A stretch of 64,000 nt of DNA, taken from an uncultured Methanosarcinales archaeon (GTDB lineage: Archaea > Nanobdellota > Nanobdellia > Woesearchaeales > CAXGTL01). The stretch lies in NCBI GenBank assembly GCA_964535955.1, contig CAZHVK010000001.1:115542-179541 (forward strand), in the 5' to 3' direction. A model generated the notes under the pieces. It did no database searches, was not told the origin of the DNA, and saw only the letters and a list, made by a program, of their open reading frames with translations. Below, piece after piece: positions 33,225-58,592 of this stretch. The stretch's first letter is position 1; every line of letters starts with the position of its first letter. A program made the position numbers and the translations under genes.

Positions 33225-33315
33225 AAGGAGTAGTGAACTCACAAACTTCTGCCTAACTAACAAGAGTGGGTGGAGGGGAAGTGGGTTTGGTGGGTTATAA
33301 TAGTAACAATCACAT

Positions 33316-33482
33316 GGCGGCAATGGTGTAGCCTGGGACCTTGCCTTTGACCTTATCTAAGGTATTGGTGGGTAACAGCACAGGGGACTGTGGACTATCA
33401 TTGGATAGATATCCCCTAGGCCGAGTTCAAAATAAATAATCAGATAATGAAGATTAATATGAAAGTCTCGGTTGCCGCCCCA
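33316..33482 (+). tRNA. tRNA-His (anticodon GTG) carrying three putative introns (D-loop about 33339-33377; canonical 37/38 at 33394-33410; T-loop 59/60 at about 33432-33465). G-1 and CCA are genomically encoded
   Basis: Spliced exons give a 74-nt cloverleaf. Acceptor is GCGGCAA/TTGCCGC with the His-specific G-1 (33316) opposite discriminator C73. U8 is present. D-stem is GTGT/GCAC with loop AGCCTGGGA. Anticodon stem is GGGGA/TCCCC with loop CTGTGGA (U33, GUG, G37). T-stem is CCGAG/CTCGG with the canonical T-loop TTCAAAT. The 3' end is CCA followed by a T-run. A TTATAATA TATA-like box lies upstream. Intron boundaries are approximate. Confidence 0.7.
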
Positions 33483-33502
33483 TTTTTTAAAATTTAGTTT
33501 TT

Positions 33503-33922
33503 GTGAAAATGCAAATAACAATCAGTATTAATACAAAAGAAAAACAGCAGTTTGTTGATGTTACTTCTCATGTTCAGAAATTTGTTGAAGATTCTAAAAT
33601 AGATGCAGGAATCTGTCATGTTTTTACACCGCATGCAACAGCTGCGATAGGTGTTAATGAAAATGCTGATCCAAATATTGCCTCTGACTTTTTTGTGGCT
33701 TTGAACAAGATGATTATTCCTAATGATAATTATCTGCATGATAAAATAGATAATAATGCTGCTGCTCATATTGCAGCAATTATTATAGGGCCTAGTGAGA
33801 CTTTTCCTGTAAAAGATGGGAAATTAGTGCTAGGAACATGGCAAAATGTGTTTTTAATTGAATTAGATGGTGGAAGAAAAAGAAAAGTTATTATTGATTT
33901 GATTAAAGGGCAAGTGAAATAG
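33503..33922 (+). CDS. YjbQ/UPF0047-family protein (secondary thiamine-phosphate synthase-like)
   Basis: The family pattern runs full length (VDVTSHVQKFV...GICHVFTPHATAAIGVNENADP...NAAAHIAA.IIGPSETFPV.DGKLVLGTWQ.VFL.ELDG). Confidence 0.8.
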   Translation: MKMQITISINTKEKQQFVDVTSHVQKFVEDSKIDAGICHVFTPHATAAIGVNENADPNIASDFFVALNKMIIPNDNYLHDKIDNNAAAHIAAIIIGPSETFPVKDGKLVLGTWQNVFLIELDGGRKRKVIIDLIKGQVK

Positions 33923-58036: not shown

Positions 58037-58592
58037 ATTTGATAGAAAAAGCTCTCTAACTTGATTCCAAATAATGTGTTTTGTGAATAAGTAAACATGA
58101 TTTTGCCTTTTCTATCTATTTAAGAACAAGTTTTAAACCGTAATTTTAACTAATTTCCAACTCTTTTTTTGCTTTTAAATGATTAAATGAATATGATTTG
58201 CGGTTTTTTTGACTTGTTCTATTGTTTTTAAGCCTATTTTGACTTTCTTTGTTCTTTTTAAACTTAATTTATGATTTAATAAGCATAAAAGGTTTGTTGC
58301 CTGAAGCACTAACTCCCAGGGTTCATTGCTCGCCTTATGCGTTAGCTCCATTGAGCACTCTCGTGTCAGGCTGTATTATGCAAGAGTATCTTTAAATCAC
58401 TGTTGTTCTTTGTTGAACAGCTCATAAAAGGACCCATTTGCATAAATTGTGCGATGATATATGGTAGGTAGAGGTGGTTAATAAATGTTTGGTTTTTTGT
58501 GGTTTTTGTCATCACTTGAAGGTAATGACTTATAGAAAGATTTATATAGTGGTGTGTGTTGCTTTTTACTATATAATTATATAGTGAGGTAA

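Follow-up and report, generated by a model that had tools for sequence, protein, structure and literature searches.

The 64,000-nt stretch of archaeal DNA analysed here, referred to throughout as the window, carries near its middle a tRNA-His(GUG) gene that is divided into four exons of 21, 18, 21 and 17 nt, together amounting to 74 nt plus an encoded CCA (window 33316-33482, forward strand; Table 1). The gene is interrupted by 39 nt in the D-loop (19/20), by 17 nt at position 37/38 and by 34 nt in the T-loop (59/60). The exons have GC contents of 52-71%, the three interruptions 44%, 29% and 18% in the same order, and the whole window 28%. The host is a low-GC DPANN, Woesearchaeota-like archaeon.

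Table 1. Coordinates of the tRNA-His gene, its parts and other features in the window
Feature	Position	Strand	Content
G-quadruplex motif	33268-33294	+	GGGTGGAGGGGAAGTGGGTTTGGTGGG
Exon 1, 21 nt	33316-33336	+	G-1, GCGGCAA acceptor 5' strand, U8 G9, D-stem 5' GTGT, D-loop A14-G19 (AGCCTGG)
Intron 1, 39 nt, D-loop between G19 and C20	33337-33375	+	Relaxed BHB, HBh'-like
Exon 2, 18 nt	33376-33393	+	C20 A21, D-stem 3' GCAC, A26, GGGGA anticodon stem 5', C32 U33 G34 U35 G36 G37
Anticodon	33390-33392	+	GTG
Intron 2, 17 nt, canonical 37/38	33394-33410	+	Strict hBHBh'
Exon 3, 21 nt	33411-33431	+	A38, TCCCC anticodon stem 3', variable loop TAGG, CCGAG T-stem 5', T-loop T54-A59 (TTCAAA)
Intron 3, 34 nt, T-loop 59/60	33432-33465	+	Strict hBHBh'
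Exon 4, 17 nt	33466-33482	+	U60, CTCGG T-stem 3', TTGCCGC acceptor 3' strand, discriminator C73, encoded CCA
Oligo-T run (TTTTTT) directly 3' of CCA	33483-33488	+	Probable archaeal transcription terminator
YjbQ/UPF0047 gene	33509-33922	+	Between tRNA-His and the MBF1-like gene
GC-rich island	58295-58379		About 50% GC, in a 630-nt intergenic gap

The acceptor stem is formed by pairing of GCGGCAA (33317-33323) with TTGCCGC (33472-33478), and beyond it lies an encoded G-1 (33316) opposite C73 (33479), a combination that is invariant across all orthologues. The anticodon loop, CTGTGGA, is made up of 33388-33393 and 33411, with U33 and the purine G37 present. An encoded G-1:C73 together with the anticodon GUG is the HisRS identity set in archaea and bacteria. 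A first-pass annotation of this DNA had named the gene tRNA-His(GUG) on the strength of such elements, each of which was found in its place, and had anticipated a mature species of 74 nt plus CCA, the same figure that the final model gives; the spliced form is likewise called tRNA-His by ARAGORN.

In its genomic form the gene escapes standard tRNA finders. ARAGORN returned no tRNA anywhere in the intact 64 kb and none in the region even with its intron options, and Rfam credibly matched neither a tRNA nor any other RNA in the intact window, whether at the gathering threshold or at E<=10. Once the three segments were removed, ARAGORN reported tRNA-His(gtg) for almost every D-loop boundary tried, as well as for the final model, with a cloverleaf comprising a 7-bp acceptor stem, a 4-bp D-stem, a 5-bp anticodon stem and a 5-bp T-stem. 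Among the orthologous genes described below, the Rfam tRNA model gave three intronless copies 53-59 bits (gathering score, 29) and missed every disrupted copy; the intronless copies so scored differ from the window gene only by compensated stem changes. A custom T-arm/acceptor scan for other disrupted tRNAs in the window recovered tRNA-His alone, and no second tRNA gene was found in positions 1-64000 by ARAGORN, Rfam or that scan. Since both ARAGORN and Rfam miss the gene, MAGs of this clade will appear to be without a tRNA-His.

Relatives of the gene were sought with GGCGGNNNTGGTGTAGCCTGG in one genome per GTDB species. The scan yielded 65 loci (designated here by L numbers), of which 28 are archaeal tRNA-His(GTG) genes, in MAGs labelled almost without exception Woesearchaeota, Nanoarchaeota or Nanobdellota. 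Fifteen of the 28 are intronless and 74-75 nt long (L019, L021, L027, L028, L034, L039, L048, L050, L053, L055, L056, L057, L060, L062 and L070), with a D-loop of the form A-GCCTGG-(C/T)A or A-GCCTGG-(C/T)TA. Three contain an intron at 37/38 only (L009, L013 and L022), three at 59/60 only (L029, L068 and L071), one at 53/54 only (L023) and two at both 37/38 and 59/60 (L010 and L032). Finally, four genes possess all three introns at the window's positions (L016, L040, L066 and L067). An additional scan of metagenomes for tRNA-His genes with a D-loop intron gave one true match, L077, which is identical to L067; the seven other matches were rejected as unrelated coding sequence.

The genomic surroundings of these genes are also shared. 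The order NAC, hyp171, hyp164, TM179 (a membrane protein), tRNA-His and MBF1 is common to the window, L040, L066 and L067, and the next two genes, hyp241 and GT2, have matches in L040 and L066 only. TM179 additionally lies upstream of tRNA-His in L016, L023, L032 and L068. The tRNA-His loci are orthologous, because this gene order is common to L040, L066 and L067 at protein identities of 57-81% over the eight window proteins compared. The YjbQ/UPF0047 gene that follows tRNA-His in the window is confined to the window's lineage, MBF1 coming directly after tRNA-His in L040, L066 and L067.

Several further features of the orthologous loci deserve mention in their own right. The single 26-nt insertion of L023 lies between the T-stem and the T-loop (53/54) and not at 59/60, and the 59/60 introns of L010 (85 nt, structured) and L032 (roughly 80 nt) are unusually long. 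When the 3' ends of L016, L040, L066, L067, L019 and L032 were compared with those of the other tRNA-His loci, CCA was found to be encoded in all three-intron genes and absent in 14 of the 15 intronless orthologues, which end in CCCTT or similar. An 18-nt near-copy of the tRNA-His 5' exon (GGCGGCAATGGTGcAGCC) occurs at L067 3515-3532 on the reverse strand, equivalent to L077 6121-6138 on the reverse strand; some 85 nt separate it from the real three-intron gene downstream, two small hairpins follow it, and it may have been left behind by a local duplication or by integration at the tRNA. Genes for archaeal RNase P RNA (118 and 152 bits) were found at L034 2196-2493 (reverse strand) and L053 4276-4570 (forward strand), both in Woesearchaeota MAG loci and within about 2 kb of the intronless tRNA-His. 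Lastly, L040 (CAZYAB010000001.1, a 275-kb contig) is labelled as an uncultured Methanosarcinales MAG; its locus has a GC content of 27% and is in synteny with that of the window. The contig has probably been put in the wrong bin or given the wrong label.

The archaeal bulge-helix-bulge (BHB) motif consists of two 3-nt bulges on opposite strands with a 4-bp helix between them (PMC5829648). In the strict form (hBHBh') this core has helices on both sides, and HBh', hBH and BHL are recognised as relaxed forms. The cut rule applied here, cleavage after the second bulge nucleotide, was calibrated internally on the anticodon intron, since the 7-nt loop CUGUGGA arises from that cut only, and the same rule applied to the T-arm gives the T-loop UUCAAAU. 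Every pair of cut sites in the region was then enumerated in both orientations, with a 4-bp central helix required, and only 33393/33411 and 33431/33466 combined an outer helix of at least 5 bp with an inner helix of at least 2 bp. These two pairs are exactly cloverleaf positions 37/38 and 59/60. At 37/38, the anticodon stem serves as the outer helix, the central helix is CUGU/AUAG, the bulges are GG^A and AU^A, and the inner helix has 3 bp (c=4, h=6, h'=3); at 59/60, the T-stem serves as the outer helix, the central helix is UUCA/UGAA, the bulges are AA^A and AG^U, and the inner helix is AU-rich (c=4, h=7, h'=2). When the introns were shuffled in place, the observed BHB quality, judged on the central and inner helices, was matched in 49 of 20000 shuffles at 37/38, 80 of 20000 at 59/60 and 23 of 20000 at the D-loop. 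The AU-rich central helices did not always form part of the thermodynamic MFE fold.

The junctions recur among the orthologues. Nine 59/60, seven 37/38 and five D-loop introns, those of the window included, were compared. The 37/38 intron occupies the same position in L010, L013, L016, L040, L066 and L067, and the pattern TTCA/AA^N...TGAA/AG^T is common to all nine parsed genes with a T-loop insertion (eight orthologues and the window), with inner helices that differ in sequence. In L066, the T-loop intron of 13 nt has room for a loop only and is thus of the BHL form.

The D-loop junction is of a more relaxed kind. Both of its cut sites were slid across the five three-intron genes (the window, L016, L040, L066 and L067), and the best register, ...CCTGG^N ... 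AA^CA..., gave 19 of 20 central pairs, and in each of the five an inner helix begins immediately behind the GG^N bulge. In the window this corresponds to a central helix GCCU/GGGU, a 5' bulge GG^G, an inner helix ACC/GGU and a 3' cut AA^C. Both in the register comparison and in constrained folds the inner helix covaries, being ACC/GGU in the window, L066 and L067, ACUUG/CAGGU in L040 and UGU(U)GCC/GGCACA in L016. Splicing in this register would leave the 9-nt D-loop AGCCUGGCA, a loop that many intronless orthologues have in precisely this form. The neighbouring +1/-1 register ranked second, with a central helix nearly as good, and all other registers, together with BHBs in the mirror orientation, performed worse over the five genes. 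An arrangement in which the 3' GGG run supplies G18/G19 was also rejected; it needs a central helix of GU and AU pairs only that competes with the D-stem, and it misfits L016. Because the motif is relaxed and the +1/-1 register almost equal, the D-loop cut is the least certain of the three, its exact sites being uncertain by about 1 nt.

A conceivable alternative is that only the 37/38 and 59/60 introns are spliced, the 39-nt D-loop insertion being retained as an expansion or removed without EndA. Such partial splicing draws on the irregularity of the junction, where the 3' cut falls within a 1x4 internal loop (A14 opposite AACA) that adjoins the D-stem beside an A14.A21 mismatch, so that there is neither a clean 3-nt 3' bulge nor an adjoining outer helix (h=0), and on L016, in which only three of the four central pairs form. 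It is nevertheless improbable, since the geometry is common to the five genes, in which the inner helix covaries and GG^N and AA^C are conserved, since removal restores the exact D-loop of the intronless orthologues, and since the insertion ranges in length from 22 to 39 nt while its junctions stay fixed. In established tRNA architecture, G18 and G19 contact the T-loop. An insertion between G19 and C20 would disturb these contacts, and relaxed HBh' introns of the D-loop are known EndA substrates, as in the tRNA-Glu of Methanopyrus kandleri (PMC5829648). Removal of all three introns is therefore the preferred reading, with a BHB-like motif at each junction, strict at 37/38 and 59/60 and relaxed in the D-loop. 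The three introns of the first-pass annotation, including the 17-nt canonical one at 37/38 and those in the T-loop (59/60) and D-loop, are thus borne out by BHB analysis, by in-silico splicing and by orthologues with and without each of them.

The exons of this gene are conserved to a degree that its introns are not. Over the 74 positions of the spliced exons, L066 and L067 match the window throughout, L040 has one difference and L016 has seven, and exon 1 is identical to the 5' part of the intronless orthologues. In the order window, L066, L067, L040 and L016, intron lengths are 39, 39, 27, 22 and 34 nt in the D-loop, 17, 17, 17, 59 and 14 nt at 37/38, and 34, 13, 40, 18 and 29 nt at 59/60; the junction helices are kept while intron length and sequence vary, and with a single cut rule, splicing reproduces the intronless orthologues exactly in their D-, anticodon and T-loops. 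Among seven distinct spliced intron-containing genes, cloverleaf pairing holds in 154 of 154 cells, compared with 39-55% when the 3' partners are slid by one to three columns. Both partners have changed in seven pairs, of which the acceptor and anticodon stems contribute three each and the T-stem one, and the acceptor halves covary though they lie 100-170 nt apart in the genes. The targets of selection are the exons and the junction geometry and not the sequences of the introns.

Such a pattern speaks strongly against the view that the locus is a decaying pseudogene riddled with insertions, with a working tRNA-His encoded elsewhere in the genome. The failure of the tRNA finders to match the gene, the lack of an obvious promoter and the confinement of the inspection to a 64-kb window would all suit a pseudogene. 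However, the window, L066 and L067 have identical exons, against no more than 57-81% identity in the neighbouring proteins and introns that have diverged; none of the 22 cloverleaf pairs is lost, and the intron-containing orthologues show compensatory changes; the BHB motifs, the CCA and the terminator T-run are conserved; and the gene holds the syntenic place of tRNA-His in intronless relatives. A pseudogene is accordingly very unlikely, even more so than partial splicing. The notion that assembly artefacts, transposable elements or self-splicing introns (group I or II) account for the insertions is effectively refuted. Nothing specific speaks for it beyond the general chance of insertions in AT-rich metagenome assemblies. 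The gene was found to be identical in six independent metagenome assemblies (ENA, JGI and Logan) and so is not an assembly artefact, and its intron positions and BHB geometry recur in related versions from GTDB MAGs and from a Tara Oceans contig. Moreover, at 17-39 nt the insertions fall far below the size of group I or II introns or IS elements, and they combine BHB geometry with the absence of any Rfam match. Taken together, these observations favour, with a probability of roughly 0.88, a functional tRNA-His gene at 33316-33482 that would be spliced at three BHB introns.

If this is correct, transcription would produce a precursor of about 167 nt with three protein-spliced BHB introns. EndA would cut after the second nucleotide of each 3-nt bulge, an RtcB-type ligase would join the four exons, and RNase P would leave the encoded G-1 in place. 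The predicted product is a 74-nt tRNA with G-1:C73, the D-loop AGCCUGGCA, the anticodon loop CUGUGGA, the T-loop UUCAAAU and an encoded CCA. Transcription, EndA cleavage, ligation, the order of intron removal and the type of EndA are all steps that we infer from the sequence.

An oligo-T run is the usual archaeal terminator, and a CCATTT(T) run comparable to the one in the window is also present 3' of the gene in L016, L040, L066 and L067. On the 5' side, no canonical TATA box was found at the expected distance in the window, where that position is taken by a G-rich tract. In more distant relatives, TTTATAAA lies about 28-35 nt upstream of tRNA-His, and the only TATA-like element in the window, TTATAATA, lies 14-21 nt upstream. 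Only one canonical G-quadruplex motif (Table 1) was found on either strand of the 64 kb (0.01 expected in shuffles). This motif is on the same strand as tRNA-His and 22 nt upstream of it, at a place where relatives are AT-rich and promoter-like, and it is absent from the orthologous tRNA-His loci. A 9-mer, TTGGTGGGT, is common to the motif and to the 3' end of the D-loop intron (33365-33373).

Elsewhere in the window, a GC-rich island (Table 1) is situated between a gene for a Toprim-domain (DnaG-like) protein and three small ORFs without a Pfam match. It has no Rfam match, and it folds no better than shuffles on either strand. The first 17 kb of the window form a glycosylation cluster that encodes GT2 and GT4 transferases, a DegT aminotransferase, a flippase and AglB/STT3.

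The enzyme that would process such a precursor is of particular interest. Neither EndA nor RtcB was found in the window by Pfam searches of its 55 ORFs (five via precomputed contig annotation), and tblastn with the M. jannaschii EndA, a query checked against PDB 1a79, likewise found no EndA there. A search with the same query beyond the window returned many single-unit proteins of 170-211 aa, each with an N-terminal and a catalytic domain. Those labelled Candidatus Woesearchaeota (P0096) or Nanoarchaeota (P0044, P0048, P0052 and P0095) had 36-43% identity over 81-98% of the query, and no epsilon-type protein of about 390 aa was present among the matches with these labels. Two other homologues, P0045 and P0067, come from samples other than the window's. 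Alpha4-type EndAs with an L3 loop have been reported from several lineages of DPANN whose tRNA genes are heavily disrupted, and subunit type is held to contribute least to EndA substrate range (Kaneta et al. 2018, PMC5829648).

By an older rule, introns at non-canonical positions call for a heterotetrameric or epsilon2 enzyme, and the first-pass annotation had predicted one of these. Such an enzyme is not compelled here, because two of the three junctions are strict BHBs, because alpha4 enzymes have been reported in DPANN (PMC5829648) and because the EndA homologues with Woesearchaeota or Nanoarchaeota labels are single-unit proteins. Only the D-loop junction, together with L066's BHL intron, calls for relaxed specificity; a non-canonical position by itself does not. 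The relatives' proteins suggest that the likely enzyme is a single-unit alpha-type EndA, although a separate beta subunit may also be encoded. More tentatively, and as a possibility that we would not favour on present evidence, an alpha4-type EndA in the Woesearchaeota clade would process the three-intron precursor, including its relaxed D-loop motif, as well as the 13-nt BHL intron of L066, and the locus, with its zero to three introns, would record recent and repeated gain or loss.

It is well documented that tRNA genes of archaea may hold one to three introns, at non-canonical as well as canonical sites; three is the recorded maximum, and most cases belong to Thermoproteales (PMC4033280, PMC3218864, PMC3239211, PMC8450103). 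The Thermoproteales genes (Pyrobaculum and Thermofilum; Sugahara et al. 2007/2008, as cited in PMC4033280, PMC3218864 and PMC8450103) resemble the one described here in that, by these accounts, they have up to three BHB introns each, at non-canonical sites in the D- and T-arms as well as at 37/38, with a mix of strict and relaxed BHBs whose removal is attributed to EndA. [quoted passage not shown] The non-canonical positions proposed in the first-pass annotation stood, and the Thermoproteales setting that it mainly associated with them did not, the host being a DPANN (Woesearchaeota-like) lineage.

A closer parallel is ARMAN-2 (Ca. Micrarchaeum acidiphilum; Fujishima et al. 2011, PMC3239211), likewise a member of DPANN with 59/60 introns. 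Its pre-tRNA-Cys has a 13-nt 59/60 intron of the BHL/hBH type, which, though relaxed, was cleaved in vitro, and its pre-tRNA-Pro has introns at 53/54 and 59/60 (PMC3239211); the 13-nt 59/60 intron of L066 and the 53/54 insertion of L023 look like direct counterparts. The differences are that ARMAN-2 possesses a three-unit epsilon2 EndA of about 390 aa, for which no equivalent was seen among the Woesearchaeota- and Nanoarchaeota-labelled matches, and that the passages of that report drawn on here describe at most two introns per tRNA and no three-intron tRNA-His (PMC3239211). The tRNA-Glu of M. kandleri provides another parallel, with a relaxed D-loop intron and a strict 37/38 intron in the same precursor, but it has two introns, its D-loop site is adjacent to A21 and not at 19/20, and its enzyme is a euryarchaeal (alpha-beta)2 without the specific loop (PMC5829648). 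Introns in the same three arms, with BHB-like junctions, also occur in a eukaryotic nuclear tRNA gene; it differs in relying on a Sen-type endonuclease, and in that G-1 and CCA are encoded here. In eukaryotes, the G-1 of tRNA-His and the CCA end are added post-transcriptionally.

Since multi-intron tRNAs, as well as 59/60 and D-loop introns, have already been described, including in DPANN, the tRNA-His gene is of a known type, and it reveals no new mechanism. A full-text literature search on tRNA introns in Woesearchaeota returned no description of this gene. What is new is a three-intron tRNA-His in a Woesearchaeota-like clade, together with an orthologous series of genes that have zero to three introns at the same sites and in the same synteny; the recorded maximum of three introns per tRNA is now found in a mesophilic DPANN lineage. 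There is a practical side to the finding as well. Training of the BHB models in tRNAscan-SE 2.0 drew on Crenarchaeota/Euryarchaeota and Thaumarchaeota and did not include DPANN (PMC8450103), and incomplete tRNA sets in DPANN have been noted and their manual curation urged (Kaneta et al. 2018, PMC5829648). The tRNA-His gene described here is a concrete and well-supported case for such curation. Finally, the orthologous series is useful for the study of intron gain and loss and of the substrate range of DPANN splicing endonucleases, and if the tentative alpha4 reading proves true, it would constitute a natural series on which to test the spread of archaeal tRNA introns and the accompanying evolution of endonuclease specificity.
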